In this document: one piece after another, positions 3,466 to 10,688 of the stretch | How the letters are laid out: each line of letters starts with the position of its first letter | Position numbering within the stretch: position 1 is the first letter of the stretch | Assembly (NCBI GenBank): GCA_947628065.1 | Contig: CANQYK010000002.1 | Coordinates: 1-57,002, forward strand | Direction of reading: 5' to 3' | DNA length: 57,002 nt | Source of the DNA: an uncultured Bacilli bacterium | GTDB lineage: Bacteria > Bacillota_I > Bacilli_A > RF39 > UBA660 | Position numbers and translations under genes: made by a program | The notes under the pieces: model-generated | What the model saw: only the letters and a program-made list of their open reading frames with translations | Databases searched by the model: none | What the model was told of the DNA's origin: nothing

Positions 3466-3885
3466 TTATACTCCACTTACATAGGTATCGGCTAAACATT
3501 TTATGGCTGATACACAATCCAAGTTGATCGTAAAGAAGTTTGTTGTGGCAACATAAGGTTCTGCTACTTCTGTTGTATCAGGGTTTGGTGCTAAAATTCT
3601 ACAAGTACAACAATTTCCTTCTAAATTCTCAACTCTAAAAATACTTGATGTTCCCGTTGTTGTTCCTAAAGTATATGGAAAGGCCCAAAGAGTACCATTA
3701 AAACAGTTGTATAAGTTAAATGGTCTTGTGTTATAGCATACAAAGCTAGGATTTGGACCTAAAAATGGTTTATCACATCCACCATCATTGCAGCAGATTT
3801 CATCATTTTCTTGTAAGGCTAAGATAACACTTAAGATATCACTTAAGCAGCCTCCTTGATTTTCACATGAATTATTTGGCTTCAT
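3466..3885 (-). CDS. Spore coat/exosporium protein, CotY/CotZ/ExsY family
   Basis: Motifs C..GGC.KPFLG, NTRPF, FRVENLEG.CC and INLDC..AIKCL match the Bacillus CotY/CotZ pattern (FRVE...C, VDL.CFCAI.CL). Start ATG at 3885 follows a GGAGGAGAAAAGGA RBS. Confidence 0.78.
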   Translation of the reverse strand: MKPNNSCENQGGCLSDILSVILALQENDEICCNDGGCDKPFLGPNPSFVCYNTRPFNLYNCFNGTLWAFPYTLGTTTGTSSIFRVENLEGNCCTCRILAPNPDTTEVAEPYVATTNFFTINLDCVSAIKCLADTYVSGV

Positions 3886-3901
3886 TCCTTTTCTCCTCCT
3901 T

Positions 3902-4306
3902 TTAAAAACAATCGATAATGATATCATCAAGACAACTGATTACACAGATGCAGTCTAAGTTAATTGTAATGAATTGATTGGTTCCAATATAAGTCCTAGT
4001 AGGATCTGTTGTATCTGGGTTTTCTTCTAGGATTCTAAGTTTGACACAGCATCCTTTGACTTTCTCTACACGAAAGACGCTTGATGAAGAAATTCCTGTT
4101 GATGATTGATAGGTTGCTGTAAATAAGCTCCCATCACGCATATAGAATGTTACAGGTCTTGTATTAAAACAAACAATGTTTGGTGTTGTCCCTAAAAATG
4201 GTCTTGTACAAGACTCATCACAAGAACATTCTCCAGATGCATTTTTTTGAAGAATATCAATCACTTTCAACAGTTTTGCAAAACAGCAATTTTCCTTTGC
4301 ATTCAT
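3902..4306 (-). CDS. Spore coat/exosporium protein, CotY/CotZ/ExsY family (tandem paralogue)
   Basis: Same motif set as its neighbour (TRPFLG, NTRPV, FRVEKVKGCC, INLDCICVISCL). RBS is AAGAGGTGG. Confidence 0.78.
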   Translation of the reverse strand: MNAKENCCFAKLLKVIDILQKNASGECSCDESCTRPFLGTTPNIVCFNTRPVTFYMRDGSLFTATYQSSTGISSSSVFRVEKVKGCCVKLRILEENPDTTDPTRTYIGTNQFITINLDCICVISCLDDIIIDCF

Positions 4307-4461: not shown

Positions 4462-4767
4462 ATGGAATATATCATTATTGGTGTCGTTCTTCTTGTTATC
4501 TTGCTTGCCGTTTTAAAAGCAAACAAAAAGGATGCTGAACTTGATCTTAATAAATTAGTAGAATATCTTGGTGGAAAAGATAACATTATTCAAACAGAAA
4601 GTAAGCTCTCAAGATTTATTGTGACGTTGAAAGATGTATCCAAAGCGAATAAGGATGCCATTCAAAAATTAGGAGCCAAAGGGATTGTGGAAATTAACAA
4701 TCAATTAAAAATAATTTTAGGACCAGACTCCAAACAATTAAAAAAGTATATTGATGAATTGAAGTAG
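4462..4767 (+). CDS. Membrane-anchored PTS EIIB(Glc)-like domain protein lacking the phospho-cysteine
   Basis: N-terminal TM helix. The rest aligns by eye to the EIIB core (L..LGG..NI......RL...LKDVSK.......KLGA.G.V). The C-(I/A)-T-R-L-R cysteine position reads S-K-L-S-R-F. The protein has no Cys at all. Confidence 0.6.
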   Translation: MEYIIIGVVLLVILLAVLKANKKDAELDLNKLVEYLGGKDNIIQTESKLSRFIVTLKDVSKANKDAIQKLGAKGIVEINNQLKIILGPDSKQLKKYIDELK

Positions 4768-4810
4768 AAATACTTCTTTTTTTGTGGTATCTTATTGATA
4801 GGAGGAGATT

Positions 4811-5485
4811 ATGAAATTAGTAACGTTTCAATCTATGGATGCCGTAAAAGATCTTTTTCAAAAAGGATATTTAGAGTGCAATCCTAAATTTATTGATTTA
4901 AAAAAATCAGGTCCAACCTATGATGTTATTTTATCAAAATTTTGTAATGCTGTGTATAACCCTGAAAAAGTAGATTATCCCATATGGTGTTGGGTAAAGT
5001 TTAAAAAAGGAATTTGTCCACCAAAACACAAAGGAAAGAAAGTATCTTCTTTTGATGTTAAAATAACTTTTCATAAAAAAGAAGAACAAGTATTAATTAC
5101 CGATTATCGAAGATTTTCTTTTCTTTTGAATAATCTTTATATTCCAACAAGTAAAAAAGACAAAGAAAGATTTGATAAAAAATTAGAAGAATATAAAATA
5201 ACCAAAGAAGAGTTAAAAGCTTATGTCCGAAAAGATAAATATGAAACACATCGAATGGATGATCTTTATCTAAGTGTTTGTAAGGAAATAAGGGATAGCT
5301 TTTCTCGTGTTTTTACGAAGGATAGTGATGTCTTACAAGGTTGTGTTTCAAGAGTTTATTTGGAAGAGATAGAGAAGATAGAGTTTTTAATGGATGAAGA
5401 TTATTGTTATGGTTCTTTTAACTATGTAAGATGGGATGGGAAGCGTTTTAATTGGAGAGAAGATTTTTATAGAAAGTTAAAATAG
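4811..5485 (+). CDS. Hypothetical protein, possibly DUF3841 family
   Basis: Strong GGAGGAG RBS. The N-terminus MKLVTFQS...KGYL resembles DUF3841 proteins, assigned from memory only. Confidence 0.4.
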   Translation: MKLVTFQSMDAVKDLFQKGYLECNPKFIDLKKSGPTYDVILSKFCNAVYNPEKVDYPIWCWVKFKKGICPPKHKGKKVSSFDVKITFHKKEEQVLITDYRRFSFLLNNLYIPTSKKDKERFDKKLEEYKITKEELKAYVRKDKYETHRMDDLYLSVCKEIRDSFSRVFTKDSDVLQGCVSRVYLEEIEKIEFLMDEDYCYGSFNYVRWDGKRFNWREDFYRKLK

Positions 5486-5498
5486 CCAAAAAAGTATA

Positions 5499-5527
5499 TT
5501 GACATCAATATTAATATGTGATATATT
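5499..5527 (+). promoter_or_regulatory. Consensus-like sigma-A promoter driving the hairpin element and the abi gene
   Basis: TTGACA (5499-5504), a 17-nt spacer, then TATATT (5522-5527). The predicted transcription start is about 5534, at the start of the conserved element. Confidence 0.65.
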
Positions 5528-5534
5528 TTATATC

Positions 5535-5580
5535 GATTAGTACTCAGGAAACTTATGAAGCCCTGAGTCAATTTTTATTT
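5535..5580 (+). ncRNA. Conserved hairpin element, copy 1 (candidate cis-encoded RNA partner or attenuator of the Abi_2 gene)
   Basis: 7-bp stem ACTCAGG (5542-5548) / CCTGAGT (5562-5568) with the 13-nt loop AAACTTATGAAGC, followed by AATTTTTATTT. Repeated at 6495-6532 with compensatory stem changes. Confidence 0.5.
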
Positions 5581-5596
5581 ATGGGGGGAATATTAT

Positions 5597-6466
5597 ATGA
5601 AAGAATATAAAAATAATGAAGAATTGTTAGAATCTTTGAAAAATAAAAATATAATTATTGATGATGAAAAAATGACTTTAAATATCATAGATAATTATTC
5701 TTATTATTCTGTTGTTAACACATATAAATATGTATTTAAAAAAGAAGATAATACATATTTTGAGAATGTTCATTTCGATGAAATATATTCTTTATATAAT
5801 TTTGATAAAAATATAAGAACTATATTTTTAAAATATGCTTTAGAATTTGAATTAAAAATAAGAGGAGTGATGGGAAATACTATTGCTAAAAATTATGGGA
5901 TTAAAGATTATCTTAACAAAATAAATTTTGATGAATTAGCAAATGAAGATGATATAAATAATGTAATAGATTCTATAAATGCAGAAATAGATAAAAATAA
6001 AGGCAAGCATCCAGCTATTACGCATTATGATCAAACTTATGGTTTTATACCTCCATTTGTTGTAATTAAAATATTATCTTTCGGACAAATAAGTAGATGG
6101 TATGGATTATTAAAACAATCAGATAGAAACGAAATAGCTAAAAAGTTTAATGTATCCCCAAAATTACTAAAACAAATTCTTATTAATATGACATTAGCAA
6201 GAAATATTTGTGCTCATTCTGATAGATTATTTTCTTTTCATAGTAAATTTTTTATGACTTTTCGTTTAATAGATAACACATATAAAACAAATAATAATTC
6301 AACTAATTTATATATGTTAATTAGAAGTATGGAAAAATTCTTAAGTGAACGAGATTACAAAGACTTAATAAATTTGATTAATAAAGAGTTTCATAATTTA
6401 AATGGATCTATTAAATCAATAGATACTAGAATAATTTTAGAAATCATGGGATATCCTAGTGTATAA
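5597..6466 (+). CDS. Abi_2 family (AbiD/AbiF-like) abortive-infection HEPN protein
   Basis: ARNICAHSDRLF matches the Abi_2 RN..AH..R motif (HEPN Rx4H). Size (289 aa) and the highly AT-rich composition fit the family. Confidence 0.75.
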   Translation: MKEYKNNEELLESLKNKNIIIDDEKMTLNIIDNYSYYSVVNTYKYVFKKEDNTYFENVHFDEIYSLYNFDKNIRTIFLKYALEFELKIRGVMGNTIAKNYGIKDYLNKINFDELANEDDINNVIDSINAEIDKNKGKHPAITHYDQTYGFIPPFVVIKILSFGQISRWYGLLKQSDRNEIAKKFNVSPKLLKQILINMTLARNICAHSDRLFSFHSKFFMTFRLIDNTYKTNNNSTNLYMLIRSMEKFLSERDYKDLINLINKEFHNLNGSIKSIDTRIILEIMGYPSV

Positions 6467-6494
6467 TTAATTTGATATTTCATATACTATTATT

Positions 6495-6532
6495 GATTAG
6501 TATTTAAGAAACTTACGAAGCCTTAAGTCAAT
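6495..6532 (+). ncRNA. Conserved hairpin element, copy 2
   Basis: Stem ATTTAAG (6502-6508) / CTTAAGT (6522-6528) with loop AAACTTACGAAGC. The flanks GATTAGTA and GTCAAT are identical to copy 1. Confidence 0.45.
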
Positions 6533-6534
6533 CT

Positions 6535-6569
6535 GCCTAATTTCTTTTTAAGAGATTAGGCATTTTGTT
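6535..6569 (+). terminator. Rho-independent terminator
   Basis: GCCTAATTTCTT / AAGAGATTAGGC form a 12-bp stem with one mismatch (6535-6561), followed by ATTTTGTT. Confidence 0.7.
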
Positions 6570-6703
6570 AATTGATTATTATAGTGCTGCTATGAAAGAA
6601 GAATAACTAGATCAATGTAGGATTAAAATTTCTTCTTTTTTTTCGTTTTAATTTTTGTTATACTTTTAATGGAATACATATATAGGAAAGGATGCGTGAT
6701 AAG

Positions 6704-9334
6704 ATGAAATATGTATATTCATTTAAAGAAGGAAATAAAGATATGCGTAACCTTCTTGGAGGAAAGGGAGCAAATCTTGCTGAAATGACAAGTTTAGGAC
6801 TACCTGTTCCAAGAGGATTTACCGTTACAACGGAAGCTTGTTTAAAGTATTATGAGGATAAAGAAGAATTAGCAAGTGACGTTGAAAAAGAAATTTTTGA
6901 GCAACTAAAAGCTTTAGAAGAATTAACAGGCAAAAAAATGGGAGATAAAGAAAATCCACTTTTGGTATCTGTTCGTAGTGGTGCGAGAGCATCTATGCCT
7001 GGAATGATGGATACCGTACTTAATCTTGGTATGAATGATGATGTTGCAGAAGGATTTAGTAAAGTAACCAACAATCCACGTTTTGTATATGATAGCTATC
7101 GTAGATTCATTCAAATGTTTGCAGATGTTGTTATGGGATTTCCAAAAAGTTCTTTTGAACGCTTATTTGATAAGATAAAAGAGGAGAAAAAAGTAGAATT
7201 TGATACAGAATTATCGGCAGAAGACTTGATGGAAGTTGTAGAAATTTATAAGAAAGAATATTTAAAACACGCAGGACGTGAATTTCCACAAGATCCAAAA
7301 GAACAATTATTAGAAGCAGTAAAAGCAGTATTCCGTAGTTGGAATAACGATAGAGCCATTACCTATCGAAGACTTAATAATATTCCATCTAGTTGGGGAA
7401 CGGCTGTTAATGTGCAAGAAATGGTTTATGGTAATCGTGGTGATACAAGTGGTACGGGTGTTGCATTTACAAGAAATCCTGCAACGGGTGAAAAACATCT
7501 ATATGGTGAATATTTAATGAATGCACAAGGAGAAGATGTAGTAGCAGGAATTCGTACTCCACAAGATATTAATACATTGAAAGAAGTTATGCCAGAATGT
7601 TATCAAGAATTTACAAAAATTTGTAAGATTTTAGAAGATCATTATTGTGATATGCAAGATATGGAATTTACCATTGAAGATGGAAAACTATTTATGCTTC
7701 AAACAAGAAATGGAAAAAGAACAGCCTCTGCTGCTTTAAAGATTGCAGTTGACCTTGTAGAAGAGGGAAAAATAACCAAAGAAGAAGCTTTATTAAAAGT
7801 AGAACCATCATCACTTGATCAACTATTACATCCAATGTTTGATATGGATGCTTTGAAGAAAGGCAAAGTTGTTGCGACAGGACTTGCTGCATCTCCTGGT
7901 GCTGCAACGGGTAAAATTTACTTTACGGCAGAAGATGTTATGAAGGCACATGAAGAAGGAGAGAAGGATTTACTTCTTGTAAGACTTGAAACATCTCCAG
8001 AAGATATTGAAGGAATGAGTCTTGCTCATGGTATTTTAACGGCTCGTGGTGGTATGACATCACACGCAGCTGTTGTAGCGCGTGGTATGGGAACTTGTTG
8101 TGTATCTGGTTGTGGTAGCATTGTAATTGATGAAGAAGCTAAGACGTTAAAAACAGAAGATGGAACGATTTATCATGAAGGAGATTACATGAGTTTAGAT
8201 GGTTCAACAGGAAACGTTTATGGAGAACAAATTAAAACAGTAGAACCAAAAATTAGTGGAAACTTTGAAACGTTCATGAATTGGGCTGATGAAGCACGTA
8301 CGTTAAAAGTAAGATGCAATGCGGATAATCCAAAAGATGCCGGTGTTGCACGAGACTTTGGAGCAGAAGGAATTGGACTTTGCAGAACAGAGCATATGTT
8401 CTTTGATAGTGAGAGAATCTTTAATTTTAGAAGAATGATTACTGCAGATACACTGGAAAAAAGAGAAGAAGCATTAGAGAAAATTCTTCCATATCAACGG
8501 GATGACTTTGAAGCACTTTTCCGTACTATGGAAGGTTATAATGTTGTAATTCGTTTCTTAGATCCACCACTTCATGAATTTTTACCACATACGGATGAAG
8601 AGATTAAACCACTTGCCGAAAGTCTTGATATTGCTTTTGAAGATTTAAAGAAGCGAATAGAGTCATTAAAAGAATTTAATCCAATGATGGGACATCGTGG
8701 TTGTCGTCTTGCAATTACATATCCTGAAATTGCTAAGATGCAAACAAGAGCAGTGATTGAAGCAGCGATAAAAGTAAACAAAGATGGTCTTAATGTGACA
8801 CCTGAGATTATGATTCCTCTTGTTGGAGATAAGAAGGAACTTGCTTATGTTAAGAATGTTGTTTGTGAAGTAGCAGATGAAATTATAAAGAAAGAAAAAG
8901 TTGATCTTACTTATAAAGTAGGTACGATGATTGAAATTCCACGTGCTGCATTAACTGCAGATCAACTCGCAGAAGAAGCAGAATTCTTCTCTTTTGGAAC
9001 CAATGATTTAACACAAATGACTTATGGATTTTCAAGAGATGATGCTTCTAAGTTCTTAAAAGATTATTACAGTAAGAAAATCTTTGAACAAGATCCATTC
9101 GCAACGCTTGATCAAGAAGGTGTTGGAAAACTTGTTAAGATGGCAAGTGAACTTGGAAGAAGTACAAGAAAAGATATGTCTATGGGAATCTGTGGAGAAC
9201 ATGGAGGAGATCCTAGAACGATTGAATTTTGTCATAACATAGGACTTACTTATGTATCTTGCAGCCCATACCGTATTCCAGTAGCAAGGCTTGCTGCCGC
9301 ACAAGCTGCTATTAAAGAAAAACAAGGAGAATAA
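6704..9334 (+). CDS. ppdK: Pyruvate, phosphate dikinase
   Basis: N-terminus MKYVYSFKEGNKDMRNLLGGKGANLAEM. Catalytic His region GGMTSHAAVVARGMG. C-terminal region RTEHMFF...GTNDLTQ. The ATG at 6692 is an alternative start. Confidence 0.95.
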   Translation: MKYVYSFKEGNKDMRNLLGGKGANLAEMTSLGLPVPRGFTVTTEACLKYYEDKEELASDVEKEIFEQLKALEELTGKKMGDKENPLLVSVRSGARASMPGMMDTVLNLGMNDDVAEGFSKVTNNPRFVYDSYRRFIQMFADVVMGFPKSSFERLFDKIKEEKKVEFDTELSAEDLMEVVEIYKKEYLKHAGREFPQDPKEQLLEAVKAVFRSWNNDRAITYRRLNNIPSSWGTAVNVQEMVYGNRGDTSGTGVAFTRNPATGEKHLYGEYLMNAQGEDVVAGIRTPQDINTLKEVMPECYQEFTKICKILEDHYCDMQDMEFTIEDGKLFMLQTRNGKRTASAALKIAVDLVEEGKITKEEALLKVEPSSLDQLLHPMFDMDALKKGKVVATGLAASPGAATGKIYFTAEDVMKAHEEGEKDLLLVRLETSPEDIEGMSLAHGILTARGGMTSHAAVVARGMGTCCVSGCGSIVIDEEAKTLKTEDGTIYHEGDYMSLDGSTGNVYGEQIKTVEPKISGNFETFMNWADEARTLKVRCNADNPKDAGVARDFGAEGIGLCRTEHMFFDSERIFNFRRMITADTLEKREEALEKILPYQRDDFEALFRTMEGYNVVIRFLDPPLHEFLPHTDEEIKPLAESLDIAFEDLKKRIESLKEFNPMMGHRGCRLAITYPEIAKMQTRAVIEAAIKVNKDGLNVTPEIMIPLVGDKKELAYVKNVVCEVADEIIKKEKVDLTYKVGTMIEIPRAALTADQLAEEAEFFSFGTNDLTQMTYGFSRDDASKFLKDYYSKKIFEQDPFATLDQEGVGKLVKMASELGRSTRKDMSMGICGEHGGDPRTIEFCHNIGLTYVSCSPYRIPVARLAAAQAAIKEKQGE

Positions 9335-9372: not shown

Positions 9373-9482
9373 CTAAACAAGAATAGTGTAATAATTTTTT
9401 AAAATAAAAAGTTATTACGGTTTAGAGTAATAACTTTACAAAACTATGGAAATAATATATAATGTAACTAGAGGTGATTATT

Positions 9483-10688
9483 ATGCTTTTAAGAGAAGAT
9501 TATTTATCAAAAATAAGAGGGTTTTATGACTCAAATTTAATTAAAATACTAGTAGGTATTAGAAGATGTGGCAAATCAGTTATTTTAAGTCAAATCATAA
9601 ATGAACTAAAAGAACAAAGAAAAATCGATGAGAATCATATAATTTTTATTAACTTTGAATTTATAGAATATGAGGACTTACTGGATTATAAAAAATTAAA
9701 TCAATATGTCAAAGATAAAGTTCAAGATAGCAAAATGTATTATTTATTTTTCGATGAAATTCAAAATGTAGATCAATTTGAAAAAGTGATTAATTCGTTA
9801 AGAGCATCCATAAAGAACATCAGCATCTTTTTAACTGGATCAAATAGTAAAATGTTATCCGATGAATTATCATCCGTTTTATCAGGCAGATATGTTTTAT
9901 TTAATATTAATCCATTATCTTATAAAGAATATATTGCTTTAACCAATAAAGATGGAAAAGATTTAAATACTTTTTGGGACTATGCTAAATGGGGAGGACT
10001 TCCTAATAGATGTGAATTTACAGATGAGTCAGATATAAAAAATTATCTTCATAGTGTATATGATTCTATTATCTTACGAGATGTTGTTAAAAGATTAAAT
10101 TTAAAAGATACTATTCTTTTTGACATGATATTACAATATTTGATTGAAACAACAGGTCGTGAATTTTCGGCAGATAATATTATAAAATATCTAAATAAAG
10201 AAAACAAAAATATATCAAATGAAACATTATATAATTATATTGATGCCTTATGTAAAGCTTTAATAGTAAAGAAGGTTTATCGATATGATATTGTTGGTAA
10301 AGGAGTATTAAAAACATTAAATAAATATTATGTAACTGATTTGGGTATTGCTCAAATAAAAAATAACAATCCTGAGTTTCGGAATTATGTTGTATTAGAA
10401 AATATTGTTTATAATGAGTTAATAAATAGAAATTATGAAGTCTATATTGGTAAAACTAAAAATGGTGAGGTTGACTTTTTAGCAAAAAAGGAAGGAAGTA
10501 TTAAATATTTTCAAGTAACTTATGAAATGAAAGATAACGAAAGTACTATCGAAAGAGAATTTAGTGCACTTAAATCTATTAAAGATAATTATCCAAAATA
10601 TGTTCTTTCTCTTGATAAGATAGATTTATCTCGGGATGGTATTATTCATTTAAATTTAATTGATTTCTTATTAAGTAATGAATTTTAG
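9483..10688 (+). CDS. AAA+ ATPase (AAA_14) with C-terminal DUF4143-like domain
   Basis: Walker A GIRRCGKS and Walker B LFFDEIQ. C-terminal region GEVDFLAKKEGSIKYFQV is typical of DUF4143. Start ATG at 9483 follows a GAGGTGA RBS. Confidence 0.75.
   Translation: MLLREDYLSKIRGFYDSNLIKILVGIRRCGKSVILSQIINELKEQRKIDENHIIFINFEFIEYEDLLDYKKLNQYVKDKVQDSKMYYLFFDEIQNVDQFEKVINSLRASIKNISIFLTGSNSKMLSDELSSVLSGRYVLFNINPLSYKEYIALTNKDGKDLNTFWDYAKWGGLPNRCEFTDESDIKNYLHSVYDSIILRDVVKRLNLKDTILFDMILQYLIETTGREFSADNIIKYLNKENKNISNETLYNYIDALCKALIVKKVYRYDIVGKGVLKTLNKYYVTDLGIAQIKNNNPEFRNYVVLENIVYNELINRNYEVYIGKTKNGEVDFLAKKEGSIKYFQVTYEMKDNESTIEREFSALKSIKDNYPKYVLSLDKIDLSRDGIIHLNLIDFLLSNEF

Follow-up and report, generated by a model that had tools for sequence, protein, structure and literature searches.

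The window analysed here is a stretch of 57,002 nucleotides (nt) from contig CANQYK010000002.1 of an uncultured Bacilli bacterium (assembly GCA_947628065.1). It carries an abortive infection (abi) gene of the AbiD/AbiF family which is bracketed by two copies of the same 39-nt element, one ahead of the start codon and one behind the stop codon. The twofold occurrence of the element around the gene is real and not a product of chance. By analogy with characterised AbiF systems we read the whole module (5499–6572, 1.07 kb) as an AbiD/AbiF-family toxin together with a structured RNA partner, forming a split, type III-like toxin–antitoxin cassette, and we give this reading a probability of roughly 0.68. 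The features of the module, in order, are as follows.

5499 to 5527, forward strand: promoter P1, with TTGACA, a spacing of 17 nt and TG-n-TATATT (extended −10); 11 of 12 positions match, and the predicted start is at about G5535.
5535 to 5573, forward strand: hairpin U, the 5′ copy of the 39-nt element (covariance model, 62.6 bits).
5572 to 5580, forward strand: U-run TTTTTATTT (UUUUUAUUU) directly after hairpin U, a conserved T-run.
5583 to 5589, forward strand: ribosome-binding site GGGGGGA, 7 nt before the ATG, read directly.
5597 to 6466, forward strand: abi gene, encoding a 289-amino-acid Abi_2/AbiD-F HEPN protein with an RNICAH motif, a predicted toxin ribonuclease (RNase), from Pfam, PADLOC, PDB and alignment.
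6460 to 6488, forward strand: candidate promoter P2, with a weak −35-like TGTATA over the stop codon, a spacing of 17 nt and the −10 box TATACT (6483–6488), a conserved box.
6495 to 6533, forward strand: hairpin D, the 3′ copy of the 39-nt element (covariance model, 58.5 bits).
6534 to 6572, forward strand: intrinsic terminator, a 13-pair stem (6534–6562) and a T tail, the predicted shared end of the abi mRNA and of the hairpin-D unit.

The two copies, read directly as GATTAGTACTCAGGAAACTTATGAAGCCCTGAGTCAAT at 5535–5572 and GATTAGTATTTAAGAAACTTACGAAGCCTTAAGTCAAT at 6495–6532, lie on the same strand 960 nt apart from start to start, with the abi open reading frame (ORF) enclosed between them. 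According to a repeat finder, no direct repeat in the region is longer than this pair (42 nt, 83% identity). When a degenerate form of the element was searched with up to three mismatches, two sites were found in the 57 kb and none in any of 100 shuffled sequences, and a covariance model built from relatives likewise detected exactly two sites in the window (E ~1e-15 for hairpin U and ~1e-14 for hairpin D). An earlier first-pass annotation of this DNA, made from the letters alone, had pointed to a 38-nt element recurring after the stop codon, and direct reading, pattern scan and covariance model all agree with it; an outer helix (GAKU with AWUY) lengthens the element to 39 nt.

The front-and-back layout recurs well beyond this genome. 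A protein-based search with one genome per species returned 27 homologous loci which fall into two groups, one 78–91% identical to the window protein (metagenome-assembled genomes, MAGs, of gut Bacilli, Tenericutes and Erysipelotrichaceae) and one ~52% identical (Clostridia MAGs). Each complete gene with both flanks has an element ~25 nt before its start codon and another ~35 nt after its stop codon, and the seeming exceptions to this were over-extended or truncated ORF calls. Both copies were found at 61 loci. The expectation, raised with the first-pass annotation, that the element should accompany homologous abi genes holds on both sides of every complete homologue fetched (~52–91% identity). 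A simple local duplication confined to this genome was rejected, because the layout recurs in more than 60 loci of different MAGs. Further arrangements were seen at two loci: one (L002) has two complete paralogous cassettes head to tail (128–1118 and 1517–2560), each with its own U and D hairpins and differing stem types, and the other (L109) has two D-type hairpins of different types 83 nt apart (423–449 and 506–532).

Both copies can be drawn as a hairpin of three helices. In hairpin U, helix P1 pairs GAUU with AAUU, helix P2 pairs ACUCAGG with CCUGAGU and helix P3 pairs CUU with AAG, with an AAA/C internal loop. Hairpin D has AUUUAAG with CUUAAGU as helix P2 and its remaining parts are as in hairpin U. 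The minimum-energy fold of hairpin U comprises helices P2 and P3 (−9.1 kcal/mol, z −1.9), while that of hairpin D is the proposed P1–P2–P3 structure (−3.3 kcal/mol). The first-pass annotation had listed three stem differences between the copies (C-G to U.G, C-G to U-A and G-C to A-U), and these are exactly as described. Its 7-bp stem also stands, but what it took for a single 13-nt loop is better resolved as the AAA/C internal loop, the 3-bp CUU/AAG helix and an NNG triloop.

The pairing is conserved although its letters are not. A pattern blind to pairing (GT-N7-AAACTT-NN-GAAGC-N5-GTCA) was scanned over genomes and matched at least 119 stretches. Among 150 distinct matches, 133 pair at all seven stem positions and five at six of seven, with 32 stem combinations. 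The remaining 12, which pair poorly, belong to unrelated taxa, as is expected of chance matches. We then aligned 87 distinct 39-nt elements, pre-filtered for stem pairing, against the structure ((((.(.(((((((...(((...))).)))))))))))). In this alignment 96.8% of cells are paired, and nine of the 15 pairs have changes on both sides (144 cells). The covariation score is 0.409, compared with 0.222 in shuffles, and was attained by none of 500 shuffles, while controls in which the structure was slid along the alignment reach at most 53% pairing. Covariation of the element, which the first-pass annotation had asked for, is seen both in the pairing-blind scan (7/7 pairing in 133 of 150) and against shuffles. 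On this basis the 7-bp helix P2 is strongly supported and the outer helix P1 moderately supported; one pair of helix P1 alternates among G.U, U-A and A-U. Many G.U pairs occur in the stems of the aligned elements and the minus strand of copy 2 gives no fold, which together indicate that the structure forms in RNA transcribed in the direction of the gene. A DNA cruciform was considered and rejected, as the G.U pairs and the strand asymmetry argue against it.

The two copies differ in their surroundings. Promoter P1 has the same −35 box, spacing and −10 box in all relatives, 6–7 nt ahead of the element (the promoter score averages 9.87 for upstream copies and 7.2 for shuffles). Since the upstream copy follows this conserved promoter at 6–7 nt, the RNA should start at the first base of the element. 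Counting copies beside an abi footprint, a T-run follows 74 of 74 upstream copies and 1 of 70 downstream copies, and hairpin U with its U-run looks like a leaky intrinsic terminator or attenuator. Hairpin D is followed instead by the intrinsic terminator, which is kept in relatives and, folded jointly with hairpin D, gives −20.4 kcal/mol (z −4.05). Three elements of the first-pass annotation hold up here, namely its strong promoter at 5499–5527 (11/12 match, kept in relatives), its U-rich tract after copy 1 (5572–5580) and its strong terminator behind copy 2 (13 pairs and a T tail at 6534–6562).

Hairpin D lies 28 nt past the abi stop codon, and its first base, G6495, lies 6 nt past the TATACT box. 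In a comparison of 59 distinct flanks, conservation ahead of the downstream copy reaches at least 92% in columns −13 to −6 and −4, compared with ~50% elsewhere, the exception being column −10, a T/A position (69%). An exact TATAAT ending 6 nt before the downstream element occurs in 40 of the 59 flanks, against 0.56% of shuffles. The box looks like a second promoter, from which the transcript of hairpin D would begin at the base that corresponds to the first one of hairpin U, but it could alternatively be a processing site. With the terminator, hairpin D probably forms a small RNA (sRNA) unit of its own, ~75 nt long, for which promoter P2 would be used. The partial duplication of the upstream flank claimed in the first-pass annotation is reduced by these data mainly to a −10-like box before copy 2; a general duplication of the flank is not borne out.

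The stems of the two hairpins have also diverged in a consistent manner. Within a locus the U and D stems are identical in none of 32 cases. One stem pair is C-G in U (26/32) and U-A in D (31/32), while the loop-closing pair is G-C in all U copies and A-U in 22 of 32 D copies. These preferences for C-G and G-C make hairpin U the stronger of the two, which fits a role as terminator.

The protein encoded between the hairpins belongs to a known family of phage-defence proteins. Pfam PF07751 (Abi_2) matches it at 147.9 bits against a cut-off of 25.6 (E 5.4e-43, profile positions 2–183 of 184), the PADLOC AbiD model at E 3.5e-51, and its sole PDB match is 8vz6_A, an AbiF (E 2.8e-16, query residues 2–214). 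The HEPN R-phi-xxx-H motif is present, with R202, N203, H207 and R210 invariant in an alignment with the proteins of phiC2, IME197, phiARI0131-1 and PbAbiF. The Abi_2 HEPN identity given to the protein at first reading is thus upheld by profiles, sequence match to a solved structure and motif residues alike, and the intact motif suggests that the abi product is an RNase toxin. A purine-rich site stands ahead of the gene in relatives at the position matching the ribosome-binding site. The entry PDB 8VZ6, PbAbiF with its AbiFr non-coding RNA (ncRNA) from Prevotellaceae, is reportedly the work of Zilberzwige-Tal et al. 2025, and the Rfam family RF03085, the abiF RNA motif, is said to go back to Weinberg et al. 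2017.

The first-pass annotation had stated that AbiF proteins work with an adjacent ncRNA and are linked to Cas13, and published work bears this out: AbiF proteins are neutralised by adjacent ncRNAs and linked to Cas13 (PMC12373285, PMC12737573). AbiFCd, from the phi027/phiC2 prophages of Clostridioides difficile, has RCd22 as its neutralising RNA. This RNA of ~100 nt is encoded upstream, contains a tandem pair of abiF motifs (RF03085) as well as a terminator distinct from them, and is active in cis and in trans (PMC12373285). PbAbiF is a homodimer which binds two ncRNAs, and AbiF is reported to process its own ncRNA and to be the ancestor of Cas13 (PMC12737573). A 2026 review mentions upstream ncRNAs only, and describes type III systems as an RNase toxin and an adjacent neutralising RNA, with a terminator between them that sets their ratio (PMC13064643). 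The present locus shows corresponding features: a conserved structured RNA candidate, with covariation, lies on the same strand beside the toxin gene, and a termination signal (the T-run, as a sequence feature only) lies between the upstream RNA and the toxin ORF.

Close parallels are found in the PbAbiF clade. PbAbiF is likewise an Abi_2 HEPN protein with aligned R and H residues (identity ~25%), and its clade has the same succession of promoter, hairpin of ~37–39 nt with an asymmetric internal loop, T-run and ATG. However, the RNA of that clade is RF03085 (58.5 bits), unlike the element described here. We surveyed 80 loci of the clade, and the motif was upstream only in 70 of the 74 with both flanks assessable (one copy in 66, two copies in four). 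A downstream copy was present in 0 of 77 loci with an assessable downstream flank, whereas the present clade always has one. In the four loci with two upstream RF03085 motifs (L153, at 985–1021 and 1123–1159, L154, L157 and L186) the motifs are 138–245 nt apart and each comes with a duplicated promoter region of its own, which adds a third copy-number layout to the family.

Similarity between the upstream and downstream flanks was absent from the distant phage-borne homologues of phiC2, IME197 and phiARI0131-1 and from 18 of 20 PbAbiF-clade loci. One of the two high scorers, L213 (score 78), has no downstream abiF motif. For the other, L199, an RNA motif was rejected as the cause of the high score, which comes from duplicated flanking sequence. 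In L199 the abiF cassette sits between a ~60-nt direct duplication of host sequence (~970–1030 and ~2110–2170) that includes a promoter-like TTTG box, and this duplication looks like the footprint of cassette insertion.

AbiFCd resembles the present locus in having two hairpin motifs per toxin gene, a number suiting a homodimer with two RNA sites, and in premature termination between RNA and toxin (here a sequence feature only). It differs in that both of its motifs stand in tandem upstream on one ~100-nt RNA with a separate terminator hairpin, in its motif (RF03085) and in its protein (~27% identical). At the present locus the upstream motif itself would serve as the terminator stem, and the second motif lies downstream with a −10 box of its own. 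ToxIN/AbiQ also pairs an RNase toxin with an adjacent RNA and a terminator between the two, but the toxin fold is unrelated (ToxN as opposed to HEPN) and the antitoxin consists of 36-nt repeats in a tandem array, which the toxin cuts. No such tandem antitoxin array of classical type III systems is present at the locus, which has one copy on each side of the gene. On sequence comparison, the 5′ half of the design is common to the known systems, and what sets the present clade apart is its RNA motif and the 3′ copy. The arrangement, described as unusual in the first-pass annotation, is indeed so when set beside the PbAbiF clade, with upstream copies only and 0 of 77 downstream, and beside AbiFCd, with its tandem upstream motifs.

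Several observations weigh against an RNA partner of the AbiF kind. The element has no RF03085 match at E up to 10, either in the region 4500–7500 or in a 61-nt scan of 5525–5585, and the whole window has none at the gathering score (37 bits); positive controls were recovered at 37.6 bits (phiC2) and 58.5 bits (PbAbiF clade). Rfam scans of the window returned no meaningful family, only weak snoRNA noise. Like the element, RF03085 is a short hairpin tied to abiF/Abi_2 genes, of similar size and two-helix shape, but its conserved nucleotides differ and its large internal loop is on the 3′ side, while that of the element is on the 5′ side. As the two cannot be aligned, the RNA–protein analogy rests on position and general shape. 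Folding energies taken by themselves give weak evidence for either copy; hairpin D on its own is thermodynamically marginal (−3.3 kcal/mol, z −0.5), and promoter P2 has a poor −35 box. Helix P3 (CUU/AAG) and most of the loop are invariant across the aligned elements, so that covariation cannot test the pairing of this helix. Finally, the filtering of the 87-sequence alignment for stem pairing leaves the pairing-blind scan with its 150 matches as the unbiased count.

It is also conceivable, if unlikely, that the hairpins act purely in cis, U as an attenuator and D as a 3′ stabiliser or part of the terminator, with neither of them binding or neutralising the protein. Such roles would suit the terminator-like appearance of hairpin U with its U-run in all 74 upstream copies and the position of hairpin D directly ahead of a terminator. 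However, two different cis-acting jobs do not call for a common invariant AAACUUNNGAAGC core and a common type of outer helix across proteins that are ~50% identical. Lone promoter–hairpin–terminator units without abi, and copies in phages, both described below, retain compensated stems, and binding of the corresponding hairpin to the protein has been reported for both characterised clades (PMC12373285, PMC12737573).

The hairpin is also found without the toxin. Many bacterial loci lack an abi gene but have a lone unit in which a D-type hairpin stands between a strong promoter and a terminator. One of these units (in L094) matches the virtual deletion product of an intact cassette, in which promoter P1 is fused to hairpin D and the terminator, over ~135 nt, with unrelated flanks. 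Recombination between the repeats would remove the toxin and keep an expressed hairpin. Other loci have a U-type hairpin and T-run followed by the first few abi codons only (e.g. MKEYK...), as in decayed cassettes. Furthermore, four IMG/VR phage contigs have one element each (42.6–64.2 bits), with compensated stems and no Abi homology.

Lone promoter, hairpin and terminator units in MAGs: L094, 2645 to 2720; L001, 4291 to 4360; L068, L082, L087, L104, L123, L135, L138, L140, L143 and L146.
Decayed cassettes: L046; L003, 5043 to 5130; L009, 2056 to 2130; L085.
L231, 11429 to 11467, reverse strand: phage lone hairpin, 23 nt after a phage tRNA-Cys.
L232, 2654 to 2692, reverse strand: phage lone hairpin, after an endolysin gene.
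L233, 9272 to 9310, reverse strand: phage lone hairpin, 52 nt after a phage tRNA-Met.
L239, 1726 to 1763, reverse strand: phage lone hairpin, in the interval that separates a major tail protein gene from the gene that follows.

No close relative of the abi protein was found in the phage contigs, by a search which reaches close relatives only. Searches of cultured phages with the 39-nt element, and of plasmids with the whole module, gave chance-level matches or none.

The lone units bear on a second alternative, in which the two copies are direct repeats of DNA or recombination sites of a mobile or excisable cassette and the hairpin is incidental. The module has sharp boundaries and occurs in varied genomic contexts, the lone units resemble the product of recombination between the repeats (promoter P1, D-type hairpin and terminator), and some lone copies have chimeric stems with wobble pairs. 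Nevertheless, we consider recombination sites quite improbable. Each of the many G.U pairs would become a C.A mismatch on the opposite strand or in a cruciform of the DNA. Three features belong to the level of the transcript: the way the copies are oriented relative to the gene, the coincidence of the element's first base with the predicted transcription start, and the asymmetry of the U-run. U and D stems are never identical within a locus (0/32), which lowers recombination and does not favour it. No recombinase gene is linked to the module, and deletion between the repeats can be a by-product of an RNA-based design.

CRISPR–Cas13 offers a last comparison, as its HEPN effector is evolutionarily related to AbiF and the hairpin into which its direct repeats fold is what the effector binds (PMC12737573). 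The locus differs in having no array, no variable spacers and no adaptation genes, and what lies between its repeats is the effector gene itself; with two repeats only and a single-HEPN Abi_2 protein of 289 amino acids, as opposed to a two-HEPN effector, it does not qualify as CRISPR–Cas type VI. That the protein cleaves its own transcript at both hairpins, as at CRISPR repeats, and keeps the bound RNA as a guide or sensor is very improbable: the gene does lie between two folding direct repeats, AbiF reportedly processes its ncRNA and is the ancestor of Cas13 (PMC12737573), and the conserved AU-rich box just 5′ of hairpin D could be a cleavage site, but there are no variable spacer-like segments or arrays (the covariance model finds two copies only), the box is a perfect −10 consensus at promoter spacing, and there is no sign of target complementarity.

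Returning to the toxin with a split RNA partner, we infer from the characterised systems that the protein is toxic and that the hairpin RNA binds and neutralises it. Transcription from promoter P1 would start at the first base of hairpin U, and hairpin U with its U-run would halt most transcripts, freeing an RNA of ~45 nt, while a minority would read through into abi. Hairpin D would arise in two ways, as the tail of the full-length mRNA and probably also as a ~75-nt sRNA running from its own −10 box to the terminator. If the analogy with PbAbiF and AbiFCd holds, the HEPN protein would form a homodimer with one hairpin bound per monomer and its RNase site blocked. Phage infection would then collapse the supply of RNA, and the freed protein would degrade RNA and arrest the cell. 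A division of labour between the copies may be proposed, in which hairpin U, stronger and more G-C-rich, is suited to termination, and hairpin D, weaker and always different in its stem, acts as a second source of the same protein-binding RNA, so that U and D would together fill the two RNA sites of the dimer.

The lone hairpins of phages may be placed in the same scheme. Phage PhiTE is said to have captured an antitoxin RNA, pseudo-ToxI, as an escape from ToxIN. By analogy with ToxIN and PhiTE, the phage lone hairpins fit the description of candidate decoy antitoxins, that is, captured antitoxin RNA. The full model, in which the AbiF antitoxin is split into a 5′ attenuator hairpin and a separately transcribed 3′ sRNA and gut phages capture lone hairpins as decoys which disarm Abi, is possible but must be regarded as tentative. 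As a bolder extension, the repeat–gene–repeat layout could be viewed as an intermediate toward repeat arrays.

The neighbourhood of the module contains another putative defence gene. A 404-amino-acid AAA_14/DUF4143 ATPase (9474–10688, forward strand), which matches the PADLOC candidate defence family PDC-S01 at E 4e-138, is encoded 3 kb downstream of the abi module, past a pyruvate phosphate dikinase gene (6692–9334), and the two suggest a small defence islet. The cassette or its lone remnants adjoin the pyruvate phosphate dikinase gene in the window and also in L087, L094, L104, L126, L003 and L010, with the cassette upstream of this gene in the window and downstream of it elsewhere. The vicinity of pyruvate phosphate dikinase may be a recurrent insertion neighbourhood. 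On the other side of the module, two overlapping paralogous Cys-rich ORFs of 154 and 134 amino acids (3466–3930 and 3902–4306, both reverse strand) have motifs in common, such as FLG..P..VC(Y/F)NTRP.

AbiF and its ncRNA have recently been established as a toxin–RNA antitoxin pair, and the likely ancestor of Cas13. Two layouts have been described so far; in either, the RNA lies upstream and has the RF03085 motif. The present locus differs in each of these respects. It would provide the family with a second RNA motif, unrelated in sequence to RF03085, with strong covariation and absent from Rfam, and with two differentiated hairpins per toxin gene which stand on opposite sides of it and match the two RNA sites of the dimer. 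The toxin-less lone hairpin units form a natural set alongside the complete cassettes. These features are relevant to research on Abi, on toxin–antitoxin systems and on the origin of Cas13, and if the phage lone hairpins are true decoys, they would represent phage escape from AbiF-family defence by antitoxin mimicry.

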